From an uncultured Selenomonadales bacterium (GTDB lineage Bacteria; Bacillota; Negativicutes; Selenomonadales; Selenomonadaceae): 64,000 nt of DNA. The stretch spans positions 27,519-91,518 of the forward strand of contig CALFJE010000093.1 in assembly GCA_937877545.1 (NCBI GenBank). Reading direction: 5' to 3'. The notes beneath the pieces were generated by a model. It was not told where the DNA came from. It worked only from the letters and a program-made list of their open reading frames with translations, and did no database searches. Below are positions 1-64,000 of this stretch, piece by piece. The translations under genes were made by a program, and so were the position numbers. The first letter of the stretch is position 1. Every line of letters starts with the position of its first letter.

Positions 1-1682
1 AAGTTTTCAATCTTCACGTCACGCTCGGCAATCTGCGCGTTTAGAGTTTCAACCTGCGCGGCGTGGCTGGCGTTAAGGTCTTCAATCTGCGCGGCGTGGT
101 TTGCGTTGAGGGTTTCAATCTGCGCGGCGTGGTTTGCGTTGAGGTCTTCAATCTGCGCGGCGTGATTTATGTTGAGGTTTTCAATCTGCGCGGCGTGATT
201 TGCGTTAAGGTCGTCAATATGGGTGTTGAGGTCGGCAATATTGGCGGCGCGACGATTATTTTCCGCAACGAAATCTTTAATCGTCTGTTCGACAATCGCG
301 GGGTAATCTTTTTCCAACTCGCCCGAAATCTCAAAAGTCACGTGCCCCGCCGGTTCGTCAACGTTGAAGATAAATTGCGGGTCGCTCGTCCAAAATCGAC
401 GAAAGCCGCCGACATTCTCGCCCGCGTTCCCGAAAAATTTATCGACGGGCTTGCCGTTAATCGCGACGCGGCTTATCTTGACGGAAATAAAATCGGTATC
501 GGGGTCGAAGCGCAGAATTTTGGTCGGCTTATCGAGGTCGAAATCAAAACGTCCGTAGAATCTTTGTCCCATATCGACACTCAGGGTTTCTTTCGCCATA
601 CGGAAATATTCGCCGTCGAATTGGGCAAAAACTTCCGCACGCATCATGGAAAGCTTTTGGGCAAGATTGAACACGTCATAGGAGCCGCCGTCGCGCAGAA
701 AGCTTTTCTCGTCGTAGCCGTAGAGCGTCTTAATTTCGGCGGCATTGGCGGGACTGTTGAGCAGATTTTTCAAAATGGTCAAGCCCGCGATTTGGAAGGC
801 GGCAAGGTTTTTGTCCAGGCAAATTTTCGCGAAGGCAAAGCGGCGATTGATTTGCCCGTTGACGACAAAACGCTCGGCTTCGGGGAAAGTGTCCAGAAAA
901 AATTTGTTGTCCGTGAAATTGTAAACAAACTCCTGCGCCACGAAGTAAAATTCCAAATCTGCGCGGACAAGCTTTTCAAAGGAGGTCGCCGAAGTATTTT
1001 CCTGCCGCGAACGCCGTAATCTGAATTGAGTGAGCCGCTCCGGGAAAATAAAAATATCCGCGTGCGAACACAGGCGAATCCACATCAGATAATCGGGCAA
1101 CTGCCAAAAGCCTTGCACGTCAAGCAAGTGATATTTTTCGTAAACCTCGCGCCGCACCACCGCCGACGGGTGACAGAGACAATTCCCGTTGTGAAAAAAA
1201 TGATTGAGCCACTCGGCTCGCGAACGATTCGGCTGGTCAAAAATGCTTTTGTACGAATCGCCCTCGTCAAGCTCGCGAACGTTGCCCGCCTCGTCGACGA
1301 AATCAACCCACGTAAAACACGCCGCATAATTCGGCTTGCCGTCGAGGAATTTAACTTGCTTAGCCAACTTATTGGGCGTCCACAAGTCGTCGGAGTGATG
1401 CACCGCGATATACTTGCCCCGCGCAGAGTTCACGGCGTCACGAATCGCAATGACGGGACCGCGATTTTCGGTGTACAGGAACGTCTTGATTCGCGGGTCG
1501 TTGAAACGCTTTATAATTTCACGGCTGGAGTCGGTCGAGCCGTCGTCAACAATCAGCAACTCAAAATCGGCAAACGTCTGATTGAGCACGCTGTCAATCG
1601 CCGCCGCCAAATACGCCGCATGATTGTAGCTCGTCAATATCACGCTGACCTTGGGATTTTTCTTAGCTTTCGCCAAAGCCAT
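1..1682 (-). CDS. Family-2 glycosyltransferase with a C-terminal 11-residue-repeat coiled-coil tail; 3' end runs off the window
   Basis: Absent from the ORF track because there is no stop in the window. Reverse translation from ATG at 1682 (GAGAGGAGA RBS upstream) gives MALAKAKKNPKVSVILTSYNH...LLIVDDGSTD, a GT2 signature. Frame checked open around 1000-1050 and at nt 1-60 (..AQVETLNAQIAERDVKIEN). Confidence 0.8.
   Translation of the reverse strand, partial: MALAKAKKNPKVSVILTSYNHAAYLAAAIDSVLNQTFADFELLIVDDGSTDSSREIIKRFNDPRIKTFLYTENRGPVIAIRDAVNSARGKYIAVHHSDDLWTPNKLAKQVKFLDGKPNYAACFTWVDFVDEAGNVRELDEGDSYKSIFDQPNRSRAEWLNHFFHNGNCLCHPSAVVRREVYEKYHLLDVQGFWQLPDYLMWIRLCSHADIFIFPERLTQFRLRRSRQENTSATSFEKLVRADLEFYFVAQEFVYNFTDNKFFLDTFPEAERFVVNGQINRRFAFAKICLDKNLAAFQIAGLTILKNLLNSPANAAEIKTLYGYDEKSFLRDGGSYDVFNLAQKLSMMRAEVFAQFDGEYFRMAKETLSVDMGQRFYGRFDFDLDKPTKILRFDPDTDFISVKISRVAINGKPVDKFFGNAGENVGGFRRFWTSDPQFIFNVDEPAGHVTFEISGELEKDYPAIVEQTIKDFVAENNRRAANIADLNTHIDDLNANHAAQIENLNINHAAQIEDLNANHAAQIETLNANHAAQIEDLNASHAAQVETLNAQIAERDVKIEN
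48..212 (-). repeat. Five tandem 33-nt units (+ strand TTCAAYCTGCGCGGCGTG.. unit), encoding LNANHAAQIE(D/T/N) in frame inside the GT2 CDS
   Basis: Unit starts at 48, 81, 114, 147 and 180. Degenerate copies at about 27-47 and 213-245. The period of 33 nt equals 11 codons. Confidence 0.9.
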
Positions 1683-1697
1683 TCTCCTCTCTGTCGG

Positions 1698-1767
1698 TTA
1701 GGAATTAGGAACTAGGAACTAGTAAAACCTGTTCCCTGATTCCTGATTCCTGATTCCTAATCCCTGC
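1698..1767. repeat. Inverted arrays of 7-nt units forming a long imperfect hairpin between the fabH-like stop and the GT2 start
   Basis: TTAGGAA TTAGGAA CTAGGAA CTAG - taaaacc - TGTTCCC TGATTCC TGATTCC TGATTCC TAATCCC. The AGGAAY and RTTCCT arms are complementary. Confidence 0.85.
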
Positions 1768-1789
1768 TTAGAATACTTTTTACGGTGGC

Positions 1790-2794
1790 TTATGTCAAAT
1801 TTCCAATGGCAGAAAGGTCTGCGATACAGCCCGCCCAACTCAAGCCCACGCCGAAGCCCGCCAACATGACGCGTTGCAAACCTGCCGCGCCGTGAGCCTT
1901 AACAACCTGCTCAATCGCCAACGGCACGCTGCCCGATACGATGTTGCCCGTGGTCTCTATGTCGTTGTGAAACGGCACGTCGTTTAAGTTCGCCTTATCG
2001 CGCAGGTAAGTCATCATGAACTTGTTGGCTTGGTGGAAAATGCAATAGTCCAAGTCGGCGCGGGTAATTTGCGCGGAAGCAAGAACGTTATCGACGAGCT
2101 TTGGAATTTCGCGGAGCGTGAAGTAGGTTATCGCCATGCCGTCCATAAAGACTTCGTAGTTGGAGCGGGTGTTGTGATTGTCGTCGGTGGTGAAGACTTC
2201 GGGATTGTCGCGGGGCGGATACTTACTGCCGCCGACGGGAATTATCAGCTTATCGTAACGCGAACCGTCAGAGCCGAACACGAACGCCTTCAAGCCTTCG
2301 GTATCGCCGCCGTCGAGCCAAGTGGCAGTAGCTCCGTCGCCGAACAGCGGGCGCGCCGACTTATCCGCCGTGTTGATATACTTGCTGTAAACGCTTGACG
2401 TAAGGAACAGCACATTTCGGACAAGCCCCGCCTCAATTAAACCCTTGGCAACGGCAAGCCCGTAAACGTAGCCCGAACAGCCCAGCCCGATGTCCAAACT
2501 CCCGACGCCTTTGCTTAAGCCCAAGCGGTCTTGAATCTGCGCGGCGGTGTGCGGCATCTGATAATCGGGGTGTTGCGTGCACAGCAAGATAAAATCCGTC
2601 GCGTGGCGGTCAAGCCCGTATTCGGCAAAAAGTTTCTCGGCAGCTTCCAATGCCAAATCGCCCGCAGTCTCCGCCGTCACGACGTGCCGACTTTTCACGC
2701 CGATTTTCTTCATGAATCGCGCCTCAACCAAGCCGTCGTTTTGCTCAATCTGCGCGGGCAAGTAAGAGCTTATCGCCCGTATCCTCGCAAACAT
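1790..2794 (-). CDS. 3-oxoacyl-ACP synthase III-like (FabH/KAS III family) condensing enzyme
   Basis: 334 aa. Catalytic Cys context GLGCSGYVYGL, His motif IFHQANKF, Asn motif TGNIVSGSVP. Family-typical length. Confidence 0.8.
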   Translation of the reverse strand: MFARIRAISSYLPAQIEQNDGLVEARFMKKIGVKSRHVVTAETAGDLALEAAEKLFAEYGLDRHATDFILLCTQHPDYQMPHTAAQIQDRLGLSKGVGSLDIGLGCSGYVYGLAVAKGLIEAGLVRNVLFLTSSVYSKYINTADKSARPLFGDGATATWLDGGDTEGLKAFVFGSDGSRYDKLIIPVGGSKYPPRDNPEVFTTDDNHNTRSNYEVFMDGMAITYFTLREIPKLVDNVLASAQITRADLDYCIFHQANKFMMTYLRDKANLNDVPFHNDIETTGNIVSGSVPLAIEQVVKAHGAAGLQRVMLAGFGVGLSWAGCIADLSAIGNLT

Positions 2795-2818
2795 TTAATC
2801 GCCTCCCCAATCACGAAT

Positions 2819-2849
2819 AAACCCCGAGTAGCCGGCTCGGGGTTTTTTT
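2819..2849. terminator. GC-rich hairpin CCCCGAG-tagccgg-CTCGGGG flanked by an A-run and a T-run
   Basis: Stem 2822-2828/2836-2842 with T7 at 2843-2849 on the + strand. On the - strand (direction of rfbD) the hairpin is followed by TTTATT. Orientation of function is uncertain. Confidence 0.5.
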
Positions 2850-2895
2850 ACGATATTACCATTTCGACAAGTGTAGCTTTTTCGATTAACAGAGG

Positions 2896-3741
2896 TTATT
2901 GATTCAGCTCGACCAAGTAGCGTTTGAGGGCGTCTTGCCACGTCGGGAGCCGCTCAAAGCCCGCCTCGTCCAAACTCTTTTTGCTAAGTCGCGAATTGAA
3001 CGGTCTCCGCGCAGGTGTCGGATATTCCATTGTCGGGATACCTTCGACTTCGACGTCCTTGCCGGCTTGCGCGAATATTTCCCGTGCGAACTCAGCCCAG
3101 GAGCAAAAGCCCTCGTTGGTCGCGTGATACGTCCCGTATTTTTCCGAAGCCGCCATATCCGCCAGCAAACGCGCCAAATCTACCGTGTACGTCGGGGAGC
3201 CGATTTGGTCGTTGACGACGCTGATTTTGTCCTTGGTTTCGGCGAGGCGCAACATCGTCTTGATAAAGTTGTTGCCGTTGATACCGAAGACCCAGCTCGT
3301 GCGAACGATAAAGTGCTTGTCGTCGACCATGGCGCAAACCGCGTCCTCGCCGAGGAGCTTGCTGCGCCCGTAGACGTTGACGGGCTTTTTCTCGTCGTTG
3401 ACCTCGTAAGGGATATGCCCGTCGCCGCCGAAGACGTAATCGGTGCTGATATAAATCATCTTTGCATCAATTTCGTGGCAAGCCTCGGCAACCCAGCGCG
3501 TGCCCAAGCCGTTAATAGTCAGCGCAAGCTCCTGTTCGCTCTCCGCCTTATCTACCGCCGTGTACGCCGCGCAGTGAATAATCGTGTCGGGCTTCTTTGC
3601 CAAAATGAAATCCTTTGCGCCGTGTTCGGTCGTCAGCTCCAGTTCCTCCAGCGAGGGCGCAACGTATTCCACGCCGCGTTTTGTCAGTTCCTTTGCCAGG
3701 TCGTAGCCCAGCTGTCCGAGTATTCCCGTTATCAATACCAT
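2896..3741 (-). CDS. rfbD: dTDP-4-dehydrorhamnose reductase
   Basis: 281 aa. N-terminal Rossmann motif VLITGILGQLG, YGRSK (YxxxK) motif, RmlD-family length and layout. Confidence 0.85.
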   Translation of the reverse strand: MVLITGILGQLGYDLAKELTKRGVEYVAPSLEELELTTEHGAKDFILAKKPDTIIHCAAYTAVDKAESEQELALTINGLGTRWVAEACHEIDAKMIYISTDYVFGGDGHIPYEVNDEKKPVNVYGRSKLLGEDAVCAMVDDKHFIVRTSWVFGINGNNFIKTMLRLAETKDKISVVNDQIGSPTYTVDLARLLADMAASEKYGTYHATNEGFCSWAEFAREIFAQAGKDVEVEGIPTMEYPTPARRPFNSRLSKKSLDEAGFERLPTWQDALKRYLVELNQ

Positions 3742-3742
3742 T

Positions 3743-6211
3743 TTATTTAGCCTCCTTAACTACCACGTTGATTAACTTGTTCGGCACCGCGATTATTTTC
3801 ACGATACGCTTGCCCGCCGTAAGCTCCGCGATTTTGGGCAATGTCGGCGCAAGTTTCTCCAAATCCGCCTTGCTCAAGCCCACAGCCACTTTGACGTGTT
3901 CGCGCACCCGCCCGTTGATTTGGACGACGATCTCGACTTCCTCCTCCGTTATCGCCGAAGCGTCGAAGGGTATCCAACTCTGCTTGTGCACGTCGCCCGC
4001 GAAGAATTTACTCCAAAGCTCGGCGGCTATGTGCGGCACGAACGGCGCAAGCATTATCAGCAACGCCCGCGCCGCCTCCCGCGCCAACGTCGCGTTTATC
4101 GGTTTGTCTTGGAAGGCGTGCATTGCGTTGACCAGCTCCATGAGTGCGCTAATCGCCGTGTTGAACGCAAAGCGGTCGCGAATGTCCTCGGTGACTTTTT
4201 TAATCGTCTTGTGGAGCGTCCGCCGCAACGCCGTTTCCTCGTCCGTCAAAATCTGCGCGGAGTCCTTGTCGAAATTGGCGGCGAAGATGTTCACGATACG
4301 CCAGACGCGATTTAAAAATCTGAACGAACCTTGAACGCCCTCGTCGCTCCAATCCAAATCGCGCTCGACGGGTGCCGCAAACAGGATAAACAGCCTTGCC
4401 GTGTCCGCGCCGTACTTGCCGATAATTTCTTCGGGCGATACCACGTTGCCCAGAGACTTCGACATTTTTGCGCCGTCCTTGATAACCATGCCTTGGGTAA
4501 GCAGATTGGCAAAAGGCTCGTCGTAATCCAAAAGCCCGGCGTCGCGCAAAACCTTCGTGAAGAATCTGGAATACAGCAGGTGTAAAATCGCGTGCTCAAT
4601 GCCGCCGATATATTGGTCGACGGGGCTCCAGTAATTGACTTTATCGCGGGCGAAGGGTAACTTATCGTTGTGCGGGTCGGTGTAGCGCATATAGTACCAG
4701 CTCGAACAAATGAACGTGTCCATGGTGTCGGTTTCGCGGTGAGCGTGACCGCCGCATTTCGGGCAGGTGCACTCGTTGAAGGTTTTGGAAGTCGACAGCG
4801 GACTCAACGCGCCCTGCTTAAACTCCACGTCTTCAGGCAGGAGCACGGGTAAATCTTCTTCGGGGACGAGGACTTCGCCGCACTTGTCGCAATAAATCAC
4901 GGGAATGGGCGCACCCCAATAGCGTTGCCGACTGATGAGCCAATCGCGCAGACGATAGTTGACCTTACGCACGCCGAAGCCTTGAGCCTCCGCCTCGTCG
5001 ATAATCGCGCCGATAGCCGCGTGCATCTCCATACCGCTGAACTTGCCGGAATTGACTAGGACGCCCTCCTTGTCGACGTAAGCATTGGTTTGAGCCGCGA
5101 AGTCAAGCGGGGCTTTGGGATTGTCGATAACCCAGATTTTATCCAAACCGTATTTGGTGGCGAACATCCAATCGCGCTCGTCGTGGGTGGGGACGCCCAT
5201 AACCGCGCCCGTGCCGTATTCAAACACGACGTAATTGGTAACCCAAATCTGAACCTTGCCGCCGTTGAAGGGGTTGACGCAGTAAACGCCCGTGAAAATG
5301 CCCGCCTTTTCCGATTCGGAGCTGGTGCGTTCAATGTCGCTTTGAGCGCGGGCGTGTTCGCAGAAGGCTTTAATCTCGTCGGCTTTAGCGGACACCGCGC
5401 AGATTTTATCAACCAGCGGGTGTTCGGGAGCCAGAGCAAGGAACGTCACGCCAAAGGCGGTATCGGGGCGCGTGGTGTAGACGGAAATTTTTTCGCCGAG
5501 GTCGGGAACGTCAAAGAAAAATTCCAAGCCCTCGGAGCGTCCGATCCAATTCTCCTGCATAATCTTGACGCGATTTGGCCAGCCCGTCAGCTTATCCAAA
5601 TCCGCAAGGAGTTCGTCGGCATAGGCGGTTATCTTGAAGAACCACTGCGCCAAATTTTTCTTGTGAACGTCGGAGTCGCAACGCCAACACTTACCGTCAA
5701 CGACCTGCTCATTGGCAAGGACGGTACCGCACTTATCGCACCAGTTGACGGACGCCTCCTTTTTGTAGGCAAGCCCGCGCTTATAAAACAACTCGAAGAG
5801 CCACTGCGTCCAGCGATAATAATCTGCGCGGCAAGTCTCGACCTCGCGCTCCCAATCGTAGGCAAGCCCCATAGCCTTTTGCTGAGCTGTCATGTTCTTG
5901 ATATTGGCGAACGTCCAATCGCCGGGCTTTACGCCGTGAGCAATGGCGGCATTTTCGGCGGGCATACCGAAGGCGTCAAAGCCCATGGGGTGCAGGACGT
6001 TGAAGCCAGCCATCGAACGGTAGCGGGCAACCACGTCGCCGATTGAGTAGTTGCGCACATGACCCATATGCAAGTTGCCTGACGGATAGGGGAACATTTC
6101 CAGCGCGTAGTATTTGGGGCGCGAGGCGTCCTCGGTCGTGCGATAGTAGTCGGGCGCGTCCCAGACGGCTTGCCATTTGCGCTCGACTTCCTGCGGATTG
6201 TATTTCTCCAT
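3743..6211 (-). CDS. leuS: Leucyl-tRNA synthetase
   Basis: 822 aa. Class I motifs [15 protein letters not shown] and [10 protein letters not shown]1 editing region, zinc CxxC pairs. Confidence 0.97.
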
Positions 6212-6545: not shown

Positions 6546-7937
6546 ATGAGCATAATTGGAGCGGCGGCAGTCCCGCACCCGCCGATAATTTTGCCGGAGA
6601 TAGGACGCGGCGAGGAGTCAAAAATCGCGGCGACGACGGCGGCTTATAAGGAGGTGGCACGGCGAATCGCGGAGTTGCAACCTGAGACGATTGTAATCAC
6701 CAGCCCGCATTCGATAATGTACGCGGACTATTTCCACATATCGCCGGGCGAATCGGCGGCGGGCAACATGGCACAATTCCGCGCTCCGCAAGTGGAGTTG
6801 GCTGTCCATTACGACGTGGAGTTTGTCAGCAAGTTGACGGCGGCGGCAATGTCGGAAGACATACCGGCGGGCACGCTCGGCGAACGCAATTCGTCACTCG
6901 ACCACGGCACCATGGTTCCGCTCTACTTCCTGCAAAAGGCGGGCGTGGACTTAGACAAGGTTAAATTCCTGCGTAGCGGGCTTAGCGGCTTGACGAACAC
7001 CGCGCATTACAAATTCGGGCAAATCATTGCCAAGACCGCGCAGACTTTGAATCGGCGGGTATTCTTCCTTGCCAGCGGCGATTTGGCGCACAAGCTCAAG
7101 GGCAGTCACTACGGCTTTGCGGAGGAGGCTCCCGTCTTCGACGAACAAGTCATGAACAATTTGGGCGGCGCGGATTTTCTGAGCTTGCTGACCATGAACG
7201 AGAAACTTTGCAATCGTGCGGCTGAATGCGGCTTGCGGAGCTTCTGGATAATGGCGGGCGCGTTGGACAGGCATAGCGTTCAGGCTGAGCGTTTGTCTTA
7301 CGAGGGGACGTTCGGCGTCGGCTACGGCATTGTTTATTTCAATGTGGGCGAGGCTGATTCGACGCGCAACTTTGCGGTGCAACTTGCCAAAGTCAAGCGA
7401 CACGAGTCGGAGCAGCGCAAGGCTAACGAGGACGCGTTTGTCCGTTTGGCGCGATACAGTTTGGAGACGTTCGTCAATACGCACAAGCCCGCCACATTGC
7501 CCGACGATTTGCCTGCCGAGCTTATGAATCGTCGAGCGGGCGCGTTCGTGAGCTTGCACAAGGGCGGCAATCTGCGCGGGTGCATTGGTACGATAATGGC
7601 GACGCAGGACACTTTGGCGGAAGAGATTCTGCAAAATGCGATAAGTGCCTGTTCGCGAGACCCGCGCTTTGACCCCGTGACGGCGGGCGAGCTTGACGAT
7701 TTGGAGTACAGCGTTGATGTCCTCGGCGAGCCGGAGCGTATCTTCGACGTTAAGGCGTTGGACGTTAAGCGTTACGGCGTCATCGTGGAAAACGGCGGGA
7801 GGCGCGGCTTGTTGTTGCCCGATTTGGAGGGCGTCGACACGGTCGAGGAGCAGATAGCCATTGCCAAGCGCAAGGCGGGTATTCGTCCCGACGAAAAAGT
7901 TTCCCTTTGGCGGTTCGAGGTCATTCGCCACCATTGA
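6546..7937 (+). CDS. Fusion of a LigB/Memo-like class III extradiol dioxygenase-type domain and an AMMECR1 domain
   Basis: N-terminal half: [36 protein letters not shown]-terminal half: [26 protein letters not shown] (AMMECR1). GGAGG RBS before the ATG at 6546. Confidence 0.8.
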
Positions 7938-13384: not shown

Positions 13385-13394
13385 GGTCGTGCTC

Positions 13395-19007: not shown

Positions 19008-19016
19008 TGGTATAAT
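19008..19016 (+). promoter_or_regulatory. Extended -10 element TGgTATAAT for the amidase gene
   Basis: TGGTATAAT at 19008-19016, 25 nt before the TTG start at 19041 with AAGGAGG RBS. Confidence 0.55.
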
Positions 19017-19040
19017 CTGCGCGGACAAGGAGGTTGAACT

Positions 19041-24296: not shown

Positions 24297-24308
24297 GAGG
24301 TCGCTTTG

Positions 24309-39480: not shown

Positions 39481-41401
<1,921 letters not shown>

Positions 41402-52737: not shown

Positions 52738-53943
52738 TTACGCTTCAAGAATTTCGATAACACGCCCCGAACCGACCGTGTGACCGCCCTCGCGGATAGC
52801 GAAGAGCAAGCCTTTTTCGATAGCAATCGGGGTAATGAGTTCGACCGTCATTTCGATATGGTCGCCGGGCATGCACATTTCAGCCGCGTTGCCGTTGGTG
52901 TCCTTGAGGTCGCTGACGACGCCCGTAACGTCGGTGGTGCGGAAGTAGAACTGCGGGCGATAGTTGGCGAAGAACGGAGTATGACGTCCGCCCTCGTCTT
53001 TGGTAAGGACGTAAACCTGAGCCTTGAACTTCGTGTGCGGATGAATCGTGCCGGGCTTGGCGATAACCTGACCGCGCTCAATTTCCTTACGGTCGACGCC
53101 GCGCAGGAGGACACCGACGTTATCGCCGGCAACCGCGCTGTCGAGGAGCTTGCGGAACATTTCAATGCCAGTGGCAACAGTCTTGCGAGGCTCGTCACGA
53201 AGACCGACGATCTCAACAGGCTCGTTGATCTTCAACATGCCGCGCTCAACACGACCCGTGGCAACCGTGCCGCGACCGGTAATCGTGAACACGTCTTCAA
53301 CCGGCATAAGGAAGGGCTTATCGGTGTCGCGTTCGGGCGTCGGAATGTATTCGTCAACGGCGTCGAGGAGTTTAAGAATGTTTTCTTTCTGAGCGGCGTC
53401 GCCTTCGAGCGCGAGGAGAGCCGAACCCGCGATAACGGGGATGTCGTCGCCGGGGAATTCGTACTTGCTGAGCAGTTCGCGGACTTCCATCTCAACGAGT
53501 TCGAGGAGTTCGGGGTCGTCAACCTGATCAACCTTGTTAAGGAACACGACGATAGCGGGAACGCCGACCTGACGGGCAAGCAGGATATGTTCGCGAGTCT
53601 GGGGCATGGGACCGTCGGAGGCGGCAACGACGAGAATCGCGCCGTCCATCTGCGCGGCACCGGTGATCATGTTCTTAATATAGTCGGCGTGACCGGGGCA
53701 GTCGACGTGCGCATAGTGGCGTTTTTCGGTCTCATACTCAACGTGCGCGGTGTTAATCGTGATGCCGCGTTCGCGCTCTTCCGGAGCCTTATCGATGTTC
53801 TCGTAGGATTCGTATTTGGCGAAACCTTTTTCCGAGAGGATCTTAGTGATAGCCGCCGTCAAGGTGGTCTTGCCGTGGTCGATATGCCCGATAGTACCGA
53901 TGTTTACGTGGGGTTTACTGCGGTCAAATTTCTGTTTTGCCAT
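52738..53943 (-). CDS. tuf: Elongation factor Tu
   Basis: 401 aa. [22 protein letters not shown]. Confidence 0.99.
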
Positions 53944-53992: not shown

Positions 53993-56077
53993 TTAATCAA
54001 TCGGCTCTCCCTTGTATCTCGCAACGATAGCGTCCGCAATATTTTTGGGCACCTCGTCGTAGTAGGCAACTTCCATTGAGTAGGTACCGCGCCCTTGAGT
54101 TTTTGAGCGCAAGTCCGTCGAGTAGCCGAACATCTCGGACAGCGGAACGAACGCGTGGATTATCTGCAGGTTATTGCGCGGCTCCATGCCGTCAATCTTC
54201 CCGCGTCGCGAATTCAAATCGCCGATAACGTCGCCCATATAATCTTCGGGCACCGTGACCTCGACTTTGACGTAAGGCTCCAGCAACACGGGCTTAGCCT
54301 TTTCAGCCGCCGCCTTGAACGCCAACGAACCTGCGATTTTGAACGCCGCCTCGGAGCTGTCGACCTCGTGAAAACTGCCGTCGTAAACGGTCGCCTTCAC
54401 GTCGACAATCGGGAAGCCCGCCAGTACGCCGTTCTCCATGGCTTGCTTGACGCCCGCCTCAATCGGATTGATGTACTCTTTGGGAATGACGCCGCCGACG
54501 ATTTTGTTTTCAAAGACGAAGCCTGCGCCGGTCTCATTCGGCTCGATTTCAATCCAGCAGTGACCGTATTGCCCGTGTCCGCCCGTCTGACGAATGAATT
54601 TGCCTTCGCCCTTCTGCGCCTTGCGAATCGTCTCGCGGTAAGCAACTTGCGGCTCACCGACCTTGCAGTCAACGTGGAACTCTTGAAGCATACGATCAAC
54701 GATAATCTGCAAATGCAACTCGCCCATGCCCGAAATTATGACTTGCCCGGTTTCGGCGTCTGTGCGCACTTTGAAGGTCGGATCCTCCTCGGCAAGCTTT
54801 TGGAGCGCGATACCCATTTTATCCTGGTCGTTTTTGGTTGAAGGTTCGACGGCAACCGAGATAACGGGGTCGGGGAACTCCATAGACTCAAGGATAATCG
54901 GGTGCGCCTCGTCGCAAAGGGTGTCGCCGGTGGTGGTATCCTTCAAGCCGACCGCCGCCGCAATGTCGCCGCTGTAGACGGTATCGATTTCCTTGCGGTT
55001 ATTGGCGTGCATTTGGAGGATACGCCCGATGCGCTCCTTTTTGCCCTTGGTCGAGTTGTAGACGTAGGAGCCGCTTTTGAGCGAGCCGCTGTACACTCTG
55101 AAGAACGCGAGCTTGCCGACGAACGGATCGGTCATAATCTTGAACGCGAGGGCGGCAAAAGGTTCCTCGTCGCTTGCGGGACGCGAATCTTCGGAGCCGT
55201 CGGGCTTGACGCCTTCAATCGGGGGAATATCGGTGGGGGCGGGCATGTAGTCGACAATGGCGTCAAGCAACGGTTGCACGCCGCGATTGCGATAAGACGT
55301 GCCGCACGTGACGGGCGTCATTGTACAATCGAGCGTCGCCTTGCGAATGACGGCTTTAACCTCGTCGATTGTGACTTCCTCGCCGCCGAGATATTTCTCC
55401 ATAAAATCATCGTCTTGTTCCGCGCAGGCTTCCAAAAGCTTATCGCGATAATCTTCCGCCATGTCGCGCATGTCGTCGGGGATTTCAACCTCATTGGCGA
55501 CTTTGCCGAGGTCGTCCTCGTAGACAATCGCCTCCATTTTAACGAGGTCGATAATGCCTTGGAAGTTGTCCTCCGCACCTATAGGCAGTTGAATCGCAAC
55601 GGCGTTGGTATGGAGCCGGTCGCGCATCATCTGGATAACGTGGTAGAAATCCGCGCCCGTGATGTCCATTTTGTTGACGTAAGCCATACGCGGGACGTTG
55701 TAACGCTCCGCCTGCCGCCAAACGGTTTCAGTTTGTGGCTCGACGCCGCCGCGTGCCGTCAATATGGCAAGTGCGCCGTCCAATACTCTCAAAGACCTTT
55801 CGACCTCGACCGTAAAGTCAACGTGACCGGGCGTGTCGATGATATTGATTCGGTGATTCTTCCAGAAACAAGTTGTCGCCGCCGATGTTATGGTAATGCC
55901 GCGTTCTTGTTCCTGCTTCATCCAGTCCATAGTCGCCGCGCCTTCGTGCACTTCGCCGAGCTTGTGATTGACACCCGTATAAAAAAGAATCCGCTCGGTG
56001 GTGGTCGTCTTGCCGGCGTCTATGTGCGCCATGATACCGATGTTGCGAGTTTTTTCCAGTGAAAACTCTCTAGACAC
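53993..56077 (-). CDS. fusA: Elongation factor G
   Basis: 694 aa. [24 protein letters not shown]. Confidence 0.99.
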
Positions 56078-56089: not shown

Positions 56090-56639
<550 letters not shown>

Positions 56640-57171: not shown

Positions 57172-57393
57172 CCGTTACGCCAAAGTCTCGCGCCTCGATT
57201 CGTAAGCGGGGGAGGAAGGATTTCTATAGGTGTTTATCGGCGTCAATGCTTAACTGAAACCTGCGGAGCCGAAAAGCCGTTGTTCGCCATCTGACAGCAG
57301 TTGTTTGCTTGCCTGTGAAAATGTTCACTCTGCGCGGCGGCGAAATGCAAGATTACCTTCGGTCATGCCGATTCACCTTTATTTTCAGACAGT

Positions 57394-57437: not shown

Positions 57438-59222
57438 TTACTTTTTCTTGACGGCGGTTTTTATGTAAAGCTCACGAAGTTGCTTTTCGTCGACTTCGCC
57501 GGGCGCGTGGCTCATCGGGTCAATCGCGCTCTGCGTCTTCGGGAAGGCTATCACGTCGCGAATCGATTTGCGCTTAGCCATAAGCATTACCAGGCGGTCA
57601 AGTCCGAATGCTATTCCGCCGTGCGGAGGCGTGCCGTATTCAAACGCGTCCATAAGGAAACCGAACTTCGCATGAGCCTCCTCAGCCGTCAAGCCGATAG
57701 CCTCAAAGACTTTCTCCTGAACGTCGCGGCGATATATGCGCAAACTGCCGCCGCCGACTTCCACGCCGTTTAAAACTATGTCGTAGGCGTTCGCCTTAAC
57801 CTTGTCGGGCGCGGTCAGCAGTAAGTCAATATCCTCCTCACGCGGCGACGTAAACGGGTGGTGCATTGCCTTGTAACGTTTGTCCTCCTCGACGTACTCG
57901 AACATCGGGAAATCCACTACCCACAGGAAGCAAAGCTTGTTCGGGTCGATTAAGCCTCTGCGCCGCGCCATTTCCAAACGTAATTCGCCCAAAGCTTGAG
58001 CCACGACCGACGGCTTGTCTCCGACGACCAACAGCAAATCGCCCGTCTCGCAACCCGTGGCTTTCTTGACAGCCTCGAACGTCTCCTCGCTGTAAAATTT
58101 CTTGAACGGCGATTTGACGCCCTCCGCCGAATATTGAATCCACGCCAAACCTTTAGCCCCGTAAGTCTTGACGTACTCAACCAAACCGTCAAGCTCCCTG
58201 CGCGGAATGTCCGCGTAGCCTTCGACGCGGATAACCTTAATCTGCCCGTTGTTTTCGAGGACGCTGTTAAAGACTTTGAACTCCGAACCCTTGACCAGCT
58301 CCGAAATGTCTTGAAGCTCCATACCGAATCGCATATCGGGCTTGTCGGAACCGAAACGCCGCATTGCCTCCTCCCAACTCATGCGCTCAAACGGCGTCTT
58401 AACCTCAACGTCGAGCGTCGCCTCAAAGATTTGCTTGATAAGCCCCTCCATGAGCGTGAGGATTTGGTCTTGATTGAGGAACGACGTTTCTATATCGAGT
58501 TGCGTGAATTCGGGCTGCCTGTCTGCGCGGAGGTCTTCGTCGCGGAAACAGCGCACGATTTGGAAATACTTTTCAAAGCCCGAAACCATAAGCAACTGCT
58601 TGAAGATTTGCGGCGATTGCGGCAGGGCGTAGAATTGCCCCGGATTGAGGCGGCTCGGTACCAAAAAGTCGCGGGCACCTTCGGGCGTCGAGCGGCAAAG
58701 CATCGGCGTTTCGATCTCAAGGAAGCCGTTGGCGTCGAGGTAGTCGCGCATAATCTTCGTAACGCGGTGGCGCAACATGATATTGCGTTGCATTTCGGGG
58801 CGGCGCAGGTCAAGATAGCGATAGCGCAAGCGAACGTTTTCGTCCGCGTCCACGCCGTCCTGAATGTAAAACGGCGGAGTCTTTGCCTTGTTGAGTATCC
58901 TAAGCTCGGCGACGAGAATCTCAATTTCGCCGGTCGCCATTTTCGGATTGATTGTATCTTCCGAACGCGCACGAACGGAGCCGCGCACGCCGATAACAAA
59001 TTCGTTGCGGAGCGTCTCAGCCTTGGCGAAGTCAAGCCCCTCGGTCGAGCCGTCGAAGACAATCTGAACTATGCCGCTCCTGTCGCGCATATCGACGAAG
59101 ATTAAGCCGCCGTGGTCGCGCCGACGCGATACCCAGCCCGCGAGCTGTACCTCCTTGCCCACGTCTGTGATTCGGAGTTCGCCGCATTGCGCCGTTCGCT
59201 CCATGCCTGTCAATGTTTCCAA
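57438..59222 (-). CDS. aspS: Aspartyl-tRNA synthetase
   Basis: Class II motifs (FRDEDLRADRQPEFTQLD, GGGSLRIY..., GLDRLVM). TTG 59222, 7 nt after AAGGAGG, is preferred (ATG 59204 or 59249 possible). Confidence 0.95.
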   Translation of the reverse strand: METLTGMERTAQCGELRITDVGKEVQLAGWVSRRRDHGGLIFVDMRDRSGIVQIVFDGSTEGLDFAKAETLRNEFVIGVRGSVRARSEDTINPKMATGEIEILVAELRILNKAKTPPFYIQDGVDADENVRLRYRYLDLRRPEMQRNIMLRHRVTKIMRDYLDANGFLEIETPMLCRSTPEGARDFLVPSRLNPGQFYALPQSPQIFKQLLMVSGFEKYFQIVRCFRDEDLRADRQPEFTQLDIETSFLNQDQILTLMEGLIKQIFEATLDVEVKTPFERMSWEEAMRRFGSDKPDMRFGMELQDISELVKGSEFKVFNSVLENNGQIKVIRVEGYADIPRRELDGLVEYVKTYGAKGLAWIQYSAEGVKSPFKKFYSEETFEAVKKATGCETGDLLLVVGDKPSVVAQALGELRLEMARRRGLIDPNKLCFLWVVDFPMFEYVEEDKRYKAMHHPFTSPREEDIDLLLTAPDKVKANAYDIVLNGVEVGGGSLRIYRRDVQEKVFEAIGLTAEEAHAKFGFLMDAFEYGTPPHGGIAFGLDRLVMLMAKRKSIRDVIAFPKTQSAIDPMSHAPGEVDEKQLRELYIKTAVKKK

Positions 59223-59335: not shown

Positions 59336-60409
59336 ATGAATTCTACTCCGTTCAGCGATAAGCCGTGGCGTCCGTTTTTTATCAGAGATTTATTTGAAGT
59401 GTTTTTGCCTTCGGGCGACACGCAAGCCGATAAATGCGAGCCGGGCGATATTCCATTAGTTTCGGCGGGTTCAAGCAATAACGGCGTTTGCAAGCTCATA
59501 AAGTGTGGCGACGAAAAATCCAAACTCTATGACGGCAACCTCATCAGTGTCGACATGTTCGGGCAAGCCTTTTTCCACCCTTACAAATTTTATTGCGTGT
59601 CGCATGGCAGAGTTAATCTTTTGCAGCCGCGCCGCGATTTGAATCGATACCACTTTATGTTTATTTGCACGTCGATAAACACCGCGACTAAGGGAAAGTT
59701 TTCCTATAATCAAATGTGCTCCAGCAAGCGAATTGCGCGGTTGCCCATTCAACTTCCCGTCGACGAGAGTGGCAAGCCCGATTATGACTACATGGAGACT
59801 TACACGCGTCGAATCGAGACGGAACAGATTGAACGGTATCGTGAATTCGTTTCTATCGCCGACGCCGCGCAGGTTCCGCCGCTCAATCAAAAGCGTTGGA
59901 GACCGTTCATTATCGGCGAGCTGTTCAGATTGGAGGCGGGCAAGTCCAAGGGCTTGAATCATCTGGAGGAAGACGAGCAAGGCGTTCCGTACCTTGGCGC
60001 GACCAATCGCAACAACGGCGTGCTGACGTTCGTGCGTCCCGTCGAAAGTTTGATTCAGCGCGGCAACCGCATAGCGTTCATACGCAACGGCGAGGGCTCA
60101 ATCGGCTATTCCGTCTACAAGCGCGAGGATTTCATTGCCACGAGCGACATCACCTGCGGCTACGCTGACTTCCTGAACGAATACGTCGGGCTGTTCATTA
60201 CGACGGTAGCGGATAAGGTTCGCGGCAAGTACAGCTTCAATTACAAGCGGAGCGATACGCGTCTGCGGAACGAACGGCTTATGTTACCCGTGAACGACGA
60301 CGTCGAGCCTGATTTTGATTACATGGAGGCTTACGTGCGCAACGAGACTGCAAAGATTTATCGGCGGTATTTGGCTTACGTCGACGAACAAAAACAGGAC
60401 GAGCTCTGA
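59336..60409 (+). CDS. Type I restriction-modification specificity subunit (HsdS)-like protein, orphan
   Basis: 357 aa built of two homologous halves (WRPFFIRDLF..NNGV..KGKFSYN..LP....PDYDYMETY and WRPFIIGELF..NNGV..RGKYSFN..LP....PDFDYMEAY), as in two-TRD S subunits. No hsdM/hsdR in the window. Confidence 0.5.
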   Translation: MNSTPFSDKPWRPFFIRDLFEVFLPSGDTQADKCEPGDIPLVSAGSSNNGVCKLIKCGDEKSKLYDGNLISVDMFGQAFFHPYKFYCVSHGRVNLLQPRRDLNRYHFMFICTSINTATKGKFSYNQMCSSKRIARLPIQLPVDESGKPDYDYMETYTRRIETEQIERYREFVSIADAAQVPPLNQKRWRPFIIGELFRLEAGKSKGLNHLEEDEQGVPYLGATNRNNGVLTFVRPVESLIQRGNRIAFIRNGEGSIGYSVYKREDFIATSDITCGYADFLNEYVGLFITTVADKVRGKYSFNYKRSDTRLRNERLMLPVNDDVEPDFDYMEAYVRNETAKIYRRYLAYVDEQKQDEL

Positions 60410-60441
60410 AGCCCGTCCCGTTCTTGTGCTTACGGAAAGGA

Positions 60442-60820: not shown

Positions 60821-61513
60821 TCAAGTCAAGGCGGGGTCTTTTGCGTCGTTGAGTTCAAAAGCCCGCGCTCTGTCAATACAGGTGGCGCATTGCCCGCAAG
60901 GAACTTCGCCGCGTTCGTAACAGCTCCACGTCAGGTGATAGGGCGCACCCAGCTCCAAACCGACCTTGACGACGGCGGCTTTGCTTTGACCGAGGAAGGG
61001 CGCGACGAGCTTAATTTTTTCATAGGTACCGATACGAATCGCCGCGCTCATGGCGGCAACGAAATCTGCGCGGCAATCGGCGTAGGCAAAAGCAGCGGCG
61101 TCGTCAGCGTGCACACCGATATAAACCGCGACGCTTGAATCGTCGTAAAGTCCGTCCGCGAAACTTGCCGCCATAGAGAGCATAAGCCCGTTGCGGAAGG
61201 GGACATAGGTCGAAATGCGCGGCGAGTTACCTTGCTTAATCTGCGCGGCGTAGGAGCCTTTATCGAGCGGGGCGTCGGAAGTGTTAAGCAACGCGGAATG
61301 CGACAGGCGGAAGACTTCCGAGGCGTCCAATTCGTAGTGGGCGACGTTGTAAAATTTGGCGACGTTTTGAGCCGCCTCCAGCTCTTTGGCGTGACGTTGC
61401 CCGTAAAAAACGGAAAGCGTCGACACGTCCGCCGCGCCGAATTTTTTAACCGCCAAAGCCAAACATGTCGTCGAATCAAGTCCGCCGCTTGAGAGTACCA
61501 GTGCCTTAGCCAT
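60821..61513 (-). CDS. queC: 7-cyano-7-deazaguanine synthase
   Basis: MAKALVLSSGGLDSTTCL (PP-loop), C-terminal zinc Cys cluster CYE..CGQCATC. The track's N-terminal extension to 61714 is rejected. Confidence 0.9.
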   Translation of the reverse strand: MAKALVLSSGGLDSTTCLALAVKKFGAADVSTLSVFYGQRHAKELEAAQNVAKFYNVAHYELDASEVFRLSHSALLNTSDAPLDKGSYAAQIKQGNSPRISTYVPFRNGLMLSMAASFADGLYDDSSVAVYIGVHADDAAAFAYADCRADFVAAMSAAIRIGTYEKIKLVAPFLGQSKAAVVKVGLELGAPYHLTWSCYERGEVPCGQCATCIDRARAFELNDAKDPALT

Positions 61514-61778
61514 TTGCCGCCTCGAAAACTTTCTTGACGTTGGCGCGGCATTCTTCGTAAGTTTCGCCGGGGTGCGCCTCGTAGATTTTATTGCCGTCAA
61601 CGTACATGGTGGGGACGTAGTAATAATCGGCGAACTTGCCGGCGAGCTTGGGCTGAGTATTTTCGTCGATAACCTCAATGTCGGCGGGCGGATAATTTTG
61701 TTTAAGTTCGTCAATCGCTCTGAAAGCCGCCGCGCAGTAGGGACAGCCCTCCATTTTAATCAGTGTGATTTTTTTCAT
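61506..61778 (-). CDS. Thioredoxin/glutaredoxin-fold protein (CPYC motif)
   Basis: 90 aa. MKKITLIKMEGCPYCAAA... Overlaps the queC start by 8 nt. Confidence 0.75.
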   Translation of the reverse strand: MKKITLIKMEGCPYCAAAFRAIDELKQNYPPADIEVIDENTQPKLAGKFADYYYVPTMYVDGNKIYEAHPGETYEECRANVKKVFEAANG

Positions 61779-61787
61779 GATAACCTC

Positions 61788-62660: not shown

Positions 62661-62689
62661 ATGTCGCAACATCTCCTTGAAAAACCGTA

Positions 62690-63385
62690 TCATGGATTAT
62701 TCCTCATCGGACAATCGAGCTTGCCGCAAGCCGCGCAGTCTTTCTTATGTGTCGAAGATTTCTTGGCAAGCCCTATAATCGCGGTGACGGACTTGCGCGG
62801 CTCCAACATCATCGCCGAGGTTAAAGTCATGTCGATTTGCTTTGCGCCCGCGATTGTAAAAAGTTTTTCCTGCGCTGTCAAATTCCAATCGCCGTAGCCG
62901 GGGCTGAATCGCCAACGCAATTTGAATCCGTCTTTGGCGAAGGTCGCCGCGAAATGTTTTTCCATAGCGTCCGCCGCCTGTTCGACTGCCGCAGTCGCCG
63001 CCGCGTCCAAAAGCACCGAAGCCAAATATTCTCCGCGCTCGAACTTGCGGGTAATTTCGCGCTCAAGCTCCAAGCCGACGGTCGCCGCCATGCAGATAAC
63101 CCGCCGGCAACCATCCAGGTGTTTGACAATCGACTTGCCCTCAAGCTCAAAGGGCGGCTCGCTCAAGACGGTATGCCTCGCGCTGTCGTAGTCGTAAACC
63201 TCCCACGCGCCGCGAACCTCCATAAGCAACAGAGCCTCCGCGCAGGCGTCGCGGATATTTTGCTCGCCGAAGCCTTGAGCCTTCCGCAAGCCCGCATATC
63301 GACGAGTTTCCGCCGCGTCTACCTCCAAAATCTGTGCGTTGTATATCGGCACTTTGCCAGCCTCCTCTTCCACAATCCTCAACAT
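62690..63385 (-). CDS. Stand-alone MetH activation-domain-like protein (vitamin B12-dependent methionine synthase activation region family)
   Basis: 231 aa. ..RWRFSPGYGDW.L..Q..LF....A...I...LT...M..P.KS pattern. C-terminal CAACGKLDCP cysteines. Confidence 0.65.
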   Translation of the reverse strand: MLRIVEEEAGKVPIYNAQILEVDAAETRRYAGLRKAQGFGEQNIRDACAEALLLMEVRGAWEVYDYDSARHTVLSEPPFELEGKSIVKHLDGCRRVICMAATVGLELEREITRKFERGEYLASVLLDAAATAAVEQAADAMEKHFAATFAKDGFKLRWRFSPGYGDWNLTAQEKLFTIAGAKQIDMTLTSAMMLEPRKSVTAIIGLAKKSSTHKKDCAACGKLDCPMRNNP

Positions 63386-63512
63386 TACAGCCGCATTAAA
63401 ATTTGTAATTTTTTACTTAAGAATTTCATTCTGCTTATAGACAAGCCAAAAAAAATCGATTAAAATAGCGAGGCGAAAAATTTTTCAGCAACCTTTCAGG
63501 GAGGAATGTTTC

Positions 63513-63761
63513 ATGAAGAATAAAATCACAGTCAACAAGATGAACGAGAAGCTCCATTTCTACCTAATCTCAAACGGCAAGCGTTATTATCTGTTCACTC
63601 AAGATTTCTCGAAAGGCGTCTATCAATTTTTCAAGAGCGGGCGATCCGAGTCCGAACTGCACAAGTACAACTTATGGCGTAAAAATCCCCGTCTGGACAA
63701 GACTATCGAGAAACTGCCGCTGTATGTGCGCTACGTCCTGAAGGAGGAAAGTGCCGCCTAA
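63513..63761 (+). CDS. Hypothetical 82-aa basic protein
   Basis: GGGAGG RBS. No recognisable motif. More AT-rich than its surroundings by eye. Confidence 0.5.
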   Translation: MKNKITVNKMNEKLHFYLISNGKRYYLFTQDFSKGVYQFFKSGRSESELHKYNLWRKNPRLDKTIEKLPLYVRYVLKEESAA

Positions 63762-63784
63762 AAATCAATCAGAGTAAAAATTAT

Positions 63785-63814
63785 CTCCCGTCGGAAGTTC
63801 GGCGGGAGTTTTTT
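63785..63814. terminator. Bidirectional terminator between convergent genes
   Basis: CTCCCGTCG-gaagtt-CGGCGGGAG followed by T6, with A5 upstream. The core is near-identical to the hairpin at 18978. Confidence 0.8.
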
Positions 63815-63829
63815 ATTTTGTTTTCAGAA

Positions 63830-64000
63830 TTACCACGGTTGCGGGGTCATGGGGGTGACGACGCCGAATTTGTATCCCCAATCGCGCAGGAAGTGAATCA
63901 GCTCCGGCAAGGCTTTAACGGTCTCCTGCTTATCGGCGGTGGAGTGCATGAGGATAATCACCGAACGCGGCGGATTGTCGCCCAGATATTTCAAGACGTT
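63830..64000 (-). CDS. C-terminal fragment of a polysaccharide deacetylase (NodB-type) protein; 5' part lies outside the window
   Basis: My reverse translation: ..NVLKYLGDNPPRSVIILMHSTADKQETVKALPELIHFLRDWGYKFGVVTPMTPQPW*. Confidence 0.6.
   Translation of the reverse strand, partial: NVLKYLGDNPPRSVIILMHSTADKQETVKALPELIHFLRDWGYKFGVVTPMTPQPW

Follow-up and report, generated by a model that had tools for sequence, protein, structure and literature searches.

A hyper-abundant, non-polar DNA word with two dialects in Quinella-like Selenomonadaceae

Results

A hyper-abundant word in a 64-kb window

The window described here is a 64-kb stretch of DNA (contig CALFJE010000093.1) in which a short non-palindromic word, the 8-mer core CTGCGCGG (complement CCGCGCAG), occurs at 59 sites, 32 on the + strand and 27 on the − strand, compared to 5.9 expected. 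The longer 10-mer ATCTGCGCGG is present in 27 copies (20 + and 7 −), whereas 100 dinucleotide-preserving shuffles of the window contained 0.38 copies on average and at most 2. The core density of 9.2 per 10 kb corresponds to ~1 copy per 1.2 kb, and a CTGCGCGG-centered word tops the k-mer frequencies of the window for each k from 8 through 12; maximal-order Markov expectations were uninformative for a word this strong. On the evidence of its UvrB protein, which shares no more than 92% identity with proteins from rumen metagenome-assembled genomes (MAGs) labeled Selenomonadaceae or Selenomonadales, two named Quinella sp. MAGs included, the window derives from a Quinella-like bacterium of the Selenomonadaceae (Negativicutes) that has not been cultured. 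Searching the literature for this word turned up only incidental primer and sequence matches and no paper discussing it.

A preliminary description of this DNA, made by reading the sequence, had counted ~26 copies of the 10-mer and ~31 (+) and ~25 (−) copies of the 8-mer, close to the numbers above. Its coordinates were correct throughout except for 61229, which is really 61239, and it missed the − strand copy at 5395-5404. Two of its smaller observations also hold: A precedes 12 of the 16 + strand 10-mers outside a tandem repeat, and one intergenic copy overlaps a −10 box. The copies and the genes that carry them are listed here, with "10-mer" for ATCTGCGCGG, "core" for CTGCGCGG, and encoded residues in parentheses.

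48..218, +: 33-nt tandem repeat of 5.2 units with one word copy per unit (non-independent), encoding an 11-aa repeat (...HAAQIENLNAN...) near the 3′ end of the − strand GT2 glycosyltransferase gene
52..61, +: ACCTGCGCGG variant in the first repeat unit (core 54-61)
85..94, +: 10-mer in a repeat unit, antisense to GT2 (A-A-Q-I)
118..127, +: 10-mer in a repeat unit, antisense to GT2 (A-A-Q-I)
151..160, +: 10-mer in a repeat unit, antisense to GT2 (A-A-Q-I)
184..193, +: 10-mer in a repeat unit, antisense to GT2 (A-A-Q-I)
957..966, +: 10-mer, antisense, GT2 (V-R-A-D)
1419..1426, −: core, sense, GT2
2535..2544, +: 10-mer, antisense, FabH-like gene (A-A-Q-I)
2748..2757, +: 10-mer, antisense, FabH-like gene (P-A-Q-I)
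3007..3014, −: core, sense, rmlD-like gene
3567..3574, −: core, sense, rmlD-like gene
4251..4260, +: 10-mer, antisense, leuS (S-A-Q-I)
5395..5404, −: 10-mer, sense, leuS (I-C-A-V)
5822..5831, +: 10-mer, antisense, leuS (C-R-A-D)
7036..7043, −: core, antisense, LigB-AMMECR1 fusion gene
7570..7579, +: 10-mer, sense, LigB-AMMECR1 fusion gene
8425..8432, +: core (ACCTGCGCGG), sense, uvrB; lineage-specific, L-R-G in the window, L/V-K-V in relatives
8747..8754, −: core, antisense, uvrB; nucleotide-conserved in 20/33 upper-clade relatives
9335..9344, +: 10-mer, sense, uvrB (Y-L-R-G; Y-L-S-G in relatives)
9800..9807, −: core, antisense, uvrB; conserved in 23/33 upper-clade relatives
13610..13617, −: core, antisense, dCache-HAMP-PP2C (SpoIIE) gene 1
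14301..14308, +: core, sense, PP2C gene 1
14882..14891, −: 10-mer, antisense, PP2C gene 1 (N-R-A-D)
17068..17077, −: 10-mer, antisense, PP2C gene 2; 34-nt context identical to 14882, non-independent
19015..19024, +: 10-mer, intergenic, overlapping the end of an extended −10 (TGGTATAAT); upstream of the ribosome-binding site and TTG start of the amidase gene and outside the preceding terminator hairpin
19444..19453, −: 10-mer, antisense, Amidase_2 gene (A-A-Q-M)
19644..19651, +: core, antisense, 135-aa open reading frame (ORF)
20182..20189, −: core, sense, UDG-family gene
20868..20875, +: core, antisense, folK-folA fusion
21181..21190, −: 10-mer, sense, folK-folA (N-L-R-G)
22301..22310, +: 10-mer, antisense, folP (P-A-Q-I); inverted pair with 22326
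22326..22333, −: core, sense, folP
22805..22814, −: 10-mer, sense, folP (N-L-R-G)
23489..23498, −: one-off ATCTGCGCGA (A-dialect form); perfect G form in a second strain
24280..24289, +: 10-mer, sense, HlyD/MFP gene (N-L-R-G)
24463..24470, −: core (ACCTGCGCGG), antisense, SDF symporter 1
26091..26098, −: core (ACCTGCGCGG), antisense, paralogous SDF symporter 2; same context as 24463
31924..31931, −: core, antisense, 285-aa ORF
33246..33255, −: 10-mer, antisense, 86-aa ORF (S-A-Q-I)
34782..34789, +: core, antisense, FHA-domain gene
34916..34923, +: core, antisense, FHA-domain gene
37645..37654, +: 10-mer, antisense, rpsK (A-A-Q-M)
40898..40905, +: core, antisense, secY
44929..44936, −: core, sense, rplE (L-R-G)
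45601..45610, +: 10-mer, antisense, nitroreductase gene inside the ribosomal operon (P-A-Q-I)
48435..48444, +: 10-mer, antisense, rpsC (L-R-A-D)
51250..51257, +: core (ACCTGCGCGG), antisense, rplD
53099..53106, −: core, sense, tuf (L-R-G)
53648..53657, +: 10-mer, antisense, tuf (A-A-Q-M); core differs in the second strain
55420..55427, −: core, sense, fusA
56226..56233, −: core, sense, rpsG
57330..57337, +: core, intergenic, leader upstream of rpsL; not in a terminator
58198..58205, +: core, antisense, aspS
58523..58530, +: core, antisense, aspS
59865..59872, −: core, antisense, solitary hsdS gene
61064..61073, +: 10-mer, antisense, queC
61239..61248, +: 10-mer, antisense, queC
61730..61737, −: core, sense, 90-aa ORF
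62731..62738, −: core, sense, 220-aa ORF
63238..63245, −: core, sense, 220-aa ORF

Five cores (4 of them exact 10-mers) lie within the tandem repeat at 48-218, and the paralogue pairs 14882/17068 and 24463/26091 have identical contexts and hence are also non-independent; the window holds 54 independent core copies. Their spacing is Poisson-like (coefficient of variation, CV, 0.97), which rules out even or periodic spacing at the 64-kb scale. Rfam and tRNA scans of the window were empty, ruling out an RNA element, and the lack of flank conservation together with the mostly genic rather than intergenic location of the copies rules out an interspersed repeat of the repetitive extragenic palindrome (REP), miniature inverted-repeat transposable element (MITE), or BOX type.

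Alignment of the copies gave the consensus (A)(A)Y-CTGCGCGG, with T (54%) or C (39%) but never G at position −1, A in ~60% of copies at positions −2 and −3, no information past ~11 nt of motif, and a motif span of 8–11 bp. The GCGCG inside the core is least tolerant of change. As a class, one-off variants of the core were not enriched (108 compared to 94 expected under the synonymous null described below). Outer core positions were tolerant, with CAGCGCGG, CGGCGCGG, and CTGCGCGA enriched 3.6-, 2.4-, and 2.2-fold, respectively, whereas variants altered within GCGCG were at or below expectation. The palindromic one-off CTGCGCAG had 0 copies in the window compared to 3.2 expected, and several other one-off core variants were wholly absent from it. 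Part of this absence arises because CCGCGG, GCGCGC, and TGCGCA are avoided, and the preference for T after ...CAGAT is in part a consequence of GATC and GATG avoidance.

The excess resides in double-stranded DNA

Genes were called with a self-trained codon model, corrected by Pfam matches and by the gene calls of the public contig, and three nulls were applied: a within-gene shuffle of synonymous codons that keeps both protein and codon usage, a whole-codon shuffle, and a constrained synonymous null in which GGCC, GATC, CCGCGG, and similar avoided words were never allowed to rise. Genes contained 51 cores, compared to 6.2 after the synonymous shuffle. For the 10-mer outside the tandem repeat, 23 copies were observed compared to 4.5 expected, with 3 of the 4.5 being non-genic copies that are not shuffled; the genic 10-mers alone numbered 20 with these gene calls, compared to ~1.5. 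The whole-codon shuffle left even fewer copies than the synonymous shuffle, and the constrained null gave 7.4 ± 2.2 cores (maximum 12) and 1.3 copies of the 10-mer. Enrichment was ~60-fold for the 10-mer and 8-fold over the codon-aware null for the core. The preliminary description had singled out a codon-aware null as a test of the word, and under both the synonymous and the constrained versions the excess stays.

The word is read in different frames as A-Q-I/M, R-A-D, N/Y-L-R-G, or I-C-A. Through GCG-CAG, 13 of the 27 exact 10-mers encode x-A-Q-I/M (4 of the 13 in the tandem repeat), but in each of six orientation/frame classes the core was enriched 4–18 fold over the synonymous null, in agreement with the earlier view that the word is not one peptide motif. 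A peptide motif or codon bias was rejected based on the large excess after synonymous and codon shuffles and the per-frame test, and a by-product of palindrome avoidance was rejected because the constrained null failed to reproduce the excess. The excess lies in the double-stranded DNA itself rather than in peptides, codons, or RNA.

The word extends through the clade in two dialects

From 26.6 to 64 kb, the window is 100% identical to an ENA contig (ERZ922531 ... k127_236190), which continues for 9.76 kb past the right end. This extension contains 8 cores (4 of them full 10-mers; 4 sense and 4 antisense), or 8.2 per 10 kb, and no GGCC site, so the excess is also found outside the window. A second strain is 98.7% identical over 52.7 kb, and the 7.1 kb past the left end, read from this strain, carries 3 G-form copies and 1 A-form copy of the word. 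Across the 320 positions of 40 word sites, the strains differ at 1, compared to 4.3 expected at the overall rate, suggesting, although not significantly, fewer word-site differences than expected. One word gain and one word loss separate the strains. The gain involves the last core position at 23489, where the window has the A form (ATCTGCGCGA) and the second strain the G form; the loss is in tuf, where the core of the 53648 copy is CTGAGCGG in the second strain, the sole difference across the 40 compared sites.

We surveyed the clade using a UvrB neighbor-joining tree and loci L001–L054. Within the clade of the window, CTGCGCGG occurs at 1.4–10.9 per 10 kb, compared to zero-order expectations of 0.15–0.45. 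Density of this G word is highest in the immediate relatives L005, L004, L011, L008, L007, and L001, in several of which no other 8-mer is as frequent. A sister subclade (L033, L035, L037, L040, L045, and L054) instead carries CTGCGCGA(A), usually after T-Y, at 5–9 per 10 kb, and this density holds at 39–45% GC, where the zero-order expectation is 0.07–0.16 per 10 kb. Two further A-dialect loci (L213 and L215), metagenome loci that were retrieved with a DeoC-like gene and are not syntenic with the others, have the same density, with orientations of 7:7 and 4:6. L038, L049, and L053 are essentially without the word. Among controls, ~50 loci of other taxa at 45–57% GC carry 0–3 copies per 20 kb, and the Clostridium outgroup contains no word copies. 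The excess is thus clade-wide in Quinella-like Selenomonadaceae and comes in two phylogenetically coherent dialects, CTGCGCGG and CTGCGCGA.

Origin and turnover of word copies

In a uvrB codon alignment of 40 genomes, the copies at 8747 and 9800 are conserved even at synonymous positions (20 and 23, respectively, of 33 upper-clade relatives). Two other uvrB copies are lineage-specific. The copy at 8425 replaces H-L/V-K-V with H-L-R-G, with the stepwise intermediates CTGCGCGT, TTGCGCGT, and CTGCGCAA present in relatives, and the copy at 9335 replaces Y-L-S-G with Y-L-R-G. Copies therefore arise at synonymous sites and through amino-acid replacement, which in uvrB includes K to R, S to R, and V to G. 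Over alignable sequence, window copies were kept in relatives in 56 of 194 comparisons, compared to 36.8 predicted from matched control 8-mers, indicating that most copies are young or lineage-specific and that turnover is fast. The conservation at synonymous sites that the preliminary description had raised is thus seen for the two uvrB copies, whereas most copies are lineage-specific.

Two pairs of tandem paralogues carry word copies. They encode dCache-HAMP-PP2C/SpoIIE sensors (13389-15554 and 15551-17752) and SDF-family symporters with an N-terminal extension of ~130 aa (24306-25931 and 25937-27547), and the identical context of the copies within each pair indicates that they predate or accompanied the duplications. 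In uvrB, an 18-nt sequence, GATTATCTGCGCGGCGTC (window 9326-9350), is identical in the distant L032 (Quinella sp. 2Q5) and absent from all closer relatives. Identity to L032 reaches 0.88 locally, whereas it averages 0.80 over the gene. The sharing could reflect convergence or recombination over a short tract, although the local identity bump is too weak to call a tract.

Orientation relative to genes

The preliminary description had reported an orientation bias of ~20:5, which is overstated, as it includes the four repeat copies. Among independent copies in the window, 16 10-mers are antisense and 6 sense to the host gene (p ~0.05), and 32 cores are antisense, 20 sense, and 2 intergenic (p ~0.13). 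Gene direction serves as a proxy for replication direction and is safest in the ribosomal/translation gene block (35–57 kb, all − strand), where the core is distributed 6:4. The preference flips with gene direction between the + block (12.6–34.4 kb) and the − block, indicating that it follows genes and not one replication direction. In 32 word-rich loci of relatives, which overlap in gene content and hence give counts that are not fully independent, CTGCGCGR is antisense 235 times and sense 201 times, and 121:110 in genes in the locally dominant direction. There may be a weak antisense preference of ~55–60%, and with this slight excess the coding strand carries CCGCGCAG more often than the G-rich CTGCGCGG. 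The bias that had motivated a comparison with Chi is therefore weak in the window and absent in relatives. We reject a polarity of the Chi or FtsK-orienting polar sequence (KOPS) type, for which the observed skews are far too low; the >80% strand skew, switching at ori and dif, of FtsK/SpoIIIE-orienting KOPS or SpoIIIE recognition sequences (SRS) is not seen.

A word-bearing phage fragment

A 4.6-kb phage fragment (L134; IMGVR_UViG_3300031555_006575) shows window-like GGCC/GATC avoidance, and its gene products are a DnaB-like helicase, RusA, the small and large subunits of terminase, and a head-tail adaptor. The fragment contains 6 CTGCGCGR sites (3 + and 3 −), three of them inside the large terminase gene, compared to 1.0 under the synonymous null. 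L134 probably belongs to a phage or prophage with a Quinella-like host; being one fragment, and one detected by way of the word itself, it provides a hint only. L164 may be a second, weaker word-bearing case. A search with the large terminase (TerL) of L134 matched only L134 itself, and 14-mer scans of viral contigs gave mostly chance single matches, with one, perhaps two, host-matched contigs among the matches listed.

Other word biases and neighboring genes

The 10-bp palindrome AAAAATTTTT (A5T5) is a second hyper-abundant word of the Quinella-like clade. It is found within genes, in all frames, and in intergenic DNA across loci L001–L054 (for example L038, L013, L051, L011, and L001), with densities peaking at 10 per 10 kb in L038 and in L013, a locus of 49% GC. 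In 914 kb of window and relatives pooled, there are 304 copies compared to 12 for TTTTTAAAAA. The window has 4 copies (13371, 30868, 31164, and 63476), compared to ~0.03 expected, and the Clostridium outgroup (503 kb, 29% GC) has 14. The AAATTT center of AAAAATTTTT, which matches RAATTY, is ~9-fold enriched; as raw counts without a null, the pooled 914 kb contains 3067 AAATTT compared to 690 TTTAAA.

Several words are avoided in the window relative to a synonymous-codon null: GGCC (3 sites compared to ~326, a ~100-fold depletion), GATC (46 compared to 224, 5-fold), CCGCGG (5 compared to 42), the RGCGCY-type AGCGCC/GGCGCT (0 compared to 45), and GATG/CATC (235 compared to 526). Avoidance of GGCC and GATC is clade-wide except in L013, where GGCC is normal, and L053, where GATC is enriched at 89 per 10 kb. 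These patterns suggest heavy, shifting restriction-modification pressure. The window is also enriched in the word family TTATCGGCG/CGCCGATAA (9-mer, 20 compared to 2.3 expected) and in the 6-mer CGATAA (184 compared to 54 expected); the excess of this family probably results in part from GATC/GATG avoidance forcing GATA and GATT.

Four non-ribosomal genes, all on the − strand, sit within the S10-spc-alpha ribosomal protein gene cluster, and a solitary Type I specificity gene lies beyond it.

38379-39179, −: DAPG-hydrolase-like gene, between rpmJ and infA
42999-43403, −: glyoxalase-like gene, between rplF and rplR
45558-46160, −: nitroreductase gene, between rplN and rplX
46843-47556, −: DeoC-like aldolase gene, between rpmC and rpsQ
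59336-60409, +: solitary Type I specificity gene hsdS with two Methylase_S domains, between aspS and rpsO

The DeoC-like gene is located elsewhere in the genome of A-dialect relatives. The hsdS gene is opposite in strand to aspS and rpsO, has no hsdM or hsdR nearby, and is conserved in the second strain.

Discussion

The word described here is real, is a feature of the DNA rather than of its products, is non-polar and dialect-bearing, turns over rapidly, and is hyper-abundant. It is quite possible, and we propose tentatively from these sequence patterns, that it serves as a self-DNA tag, read during natural transformation or during recombination, and that the drive arising from this has spread it. 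The reader would be a DNA-binding component of the transformation or recombination route with specificity for the word, acting either at uptake, as for the DNA uptake sequence (DUS) and uptake signal sequence (USS), or just after it, as proposed for methylated HIP1. Word-bearing fragments would then be preferentially taken up or recombined, and this bias would act as a molecular drive that turns near-matches into perfect copies genome-wide, whatever they encode. Drift of receptor specificity between lineages would give rise to the G and A dialects. The broader claim that Quinella-like Selenomonadaceae possess sequence-specific self-DNA recognition for transformation, with YCTGCGCGR as the tag in G and A dialects and as the first uptake-sequence-type system in Bacillota, appears somewhat doubtful. 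The palindromic AAAAATTTTT may operate as a second tag alongside YCTGCGCGR; in Campylobacter, RAATTY methylation marks self DNA for transformation.

Related organisms provide some context for a role in transformation. Veillonella parvula, also a member of the Negativicutes, is naturally competent through type IV pili, and a search for over-represented words of at least 10 bp in this species found none (PMC5397411). For Quinella, the published annotation includes ComEA (PMC9585023, supplement), and the parts of the Quinella genome paper and supplement that we consulted mention nothing on ComEC, DprA, pilin, or AddAB. HIP1 raises transformation efficiency in cyanobacteria (bioRxiv 10.1101/2024.09.10.611283) and is reported to do so in a methylation-dependent manner (bioRxiv 10.1101/2024.09.10.611283; 10.64898/2026.06.24.733823); these studies connect HIP1, for many years a word without an assigned role, to both transformation and recombination.

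The word has the statistics of an uptake signal, as the preliminary description had supposed from its density, length, and frame independence, to which creation at synonymous and amino-acid-changing sites and the dialects can be added. Like the Neisseriaceae DUS (ATGCCGTCTGAA) and the Pasteurellaceae USS (AAGTGCGGT core), it is non-palindromic, about 8–12 bp long, present roughly once per kb in both orientations without replication polarity, and found in all frames, where it reshapes synonymous and non-synonymous sites alike. Neisseriaceae DUS also form dialects that share a core across related lineages (PMC3630211), and the dialects found here belong to sister clades of the uvrB tree. Unlike DUS and USS, the word differs in sequence and occurs in another phylum (Bacillota, Negativicutes).

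Several observations weigh against a self-DNA tag. Terminators contain about half of the DUS/USS copies (bioRxiv 10.1101/2025.10.24.684340), whereas ~96% of copies of the word are within conserved genes, only 2 of the 54 independent cores in the window are intergenic, none is inside a terminator, and the one close inverted pair in the window is inside folP (22301 and 22326). Density varies ~8-fold among close relatives, unlike that of DUS/USS, and the relatives' data come from ~20-kb loci, mostly around the single gene uvrB. The one phage fragment L134 carries the word at host-like density, whereas Neisseriaceae mobile elements are typically DUS-poor (PMC7371117). The coexistence in the clade of a second hyper-abundant word, AAAAATTTTT, may be a sign of a broader cause linked to repair or methylation.

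Such a cause would make the word a by-product without a role in uptake, generated as a methyltransferase with a partner Vsr-like mismatch endonuclease, or some other activity of biased gene conversion, resolves heteroduplexes or damage in favor of CTGCGCGR, and it would accumulate in any DNA replicating and recombining in these large cells, which we assume may be polyploid. We consider this explanation, the main rival to a self-DNA tag, unlikely, although it would account for much: orientations and frames are enriched roughly equally, in coding and non-coding DNA alike; the perfect word is enriched 8-fold, with several one-off variants missing altogether; sites are mostly young and lineage-specific, which suggests replenishment over long-term site conservation; L134 resembles its host in density; and the clade has extreme biases in GGCC and GATC as well as the palindromic word. 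Known E. coli effects of the very short patch (VSP) type, however, act on 4-5-mers and are far weaker than the 8- to 60-fold enrichment seen here, the changes in the depleted one-offs are not those expected of deamination (C to T or G to A), and their depletion is partly explained by CCGCGG, GCGCGC, and TGCGCA avoidance. HIP1 has been tied to orphan methyltransferases (PMC4390886), but no cognate enzyme was seen in the window, whose only restriction-modification gene is the solitary hsdS. A Chi-type hotspot, at which the 8-mer on the 3′-ended strand would switch AddAB or RecBCD from degradation to RecA loading and thereby protect and repair self DNA, seems improbable. Like the Chi sites of B. 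subtilis (AGCGG), S. aureus (GAAGCGG), L. lactis (GCGCGTG), and E. coli (GCTGGTGG), the word is short, GC-rich, over-represented, and specific to a species group; its core ends in GCGCGG, with a 3′ GCGG that resembles the Firmicute sites (bioRxiv 10.1101/2021.07.08.451572; PMC5959072), is conserved across related species with small changes, and at host density in a phage would fit mimicry of a protective host signal. Against this, co-orientation with gene or replication direction is missing in the window, the ribosomal/translation block, and the relatives, the weak residual bias, with CCGCGCAG on the coding strand, is the reverse of the arrangement known for Chi, and the ~60-fold enrichment of the 10-mer and information content of 10–11 bp exceed those of known Chi sites.

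Very improbable, in our judgment, is a site for an abundant chromosome-organizing protein of the nucleoid-associated or SMC-loading type, with the word selected for architecture as proposed for HIP1 from its periodic spacing. High copy number, both orientations, and gene independence would fit such a role, as would the coexisting A5T5 word, a classic intrinsically bent sequence. There is also the precedent of HIP1 (PMC5861425). The word in the window, however, shows no periodicity or even spacing at the 64-kb scale, fast site turnover between species argues against position-specific selection, and the data point to no specific binding protein. The comparison with HIP1 (GCGATCGC) is instructive more broadly: HIP1 is an octamer over-represented 15- to 300-fold within and between ORFs (PMC5861425), and the word is likewise hyper-abundant within and between genes, unrelated to peptide or RNA function, and found in a clade that also bears a palindromic hyper-abundant word. 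HIP1 is palindromic and CTGCGCGR is not, and conservation of sites between species, clear for HIP1, is only weak for CTGCGCGR (56 compared to 36.8). A coding or compositional artefact, arising from frequent A-Q, R-A, and L-R-G peptides, GCG/CAG codon preference, or avoidance of GC-rich palindromes, has a negligible chance of being correct. The x-A-Q-I/M readings through GCG-CAG, the very strong word avoidance in this genome, which distorts simple nulls, and the contribution of GATC/GATG avoidance to the T after ...CAGAT are in its favor, but a 7- to 17-fold excess survives the synonymous, codon-shuffle, and avoidance-constrained nulls, all six frames are enriched, copies are present in untranslated DNA too, relatives at 39–45% GC carry 5–9 copies per 10 kb, and amino acids have been replaced so as to create copies.

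Significance

The word is a new hyper-abundant genomic watermark in a lineage and phylum where none was known. To our knowledge, watermarks of the uptake-sequence type have been demonstrated in only two proteobacterial families; a link between HIP1 and transformation in cyanobacteria was proposed recently. If the word is a self-DNA tag, Quinella-like Selenomonadaceae would be the third or fourth such lineage, after Neisseriaceae, Pasteurellaceae, and possibly cyanobacteria, and a dialect-bearing word in rumen diderm Firmicutes would broaden the picture of uptake watermarks. If repair- or methylation-linked drive is responsible instead, the word would be an unusually strong example of it, bearing on the upkeep of HIP1-like words. 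The word would also serve as a sequence marker with which gene flow could be followed and Quinella-like genomes and their phages binned from metagenomes, and its addition to donor DNA may provide a route to transforming these uncultured, methane-relevant bacteria or their relatives.

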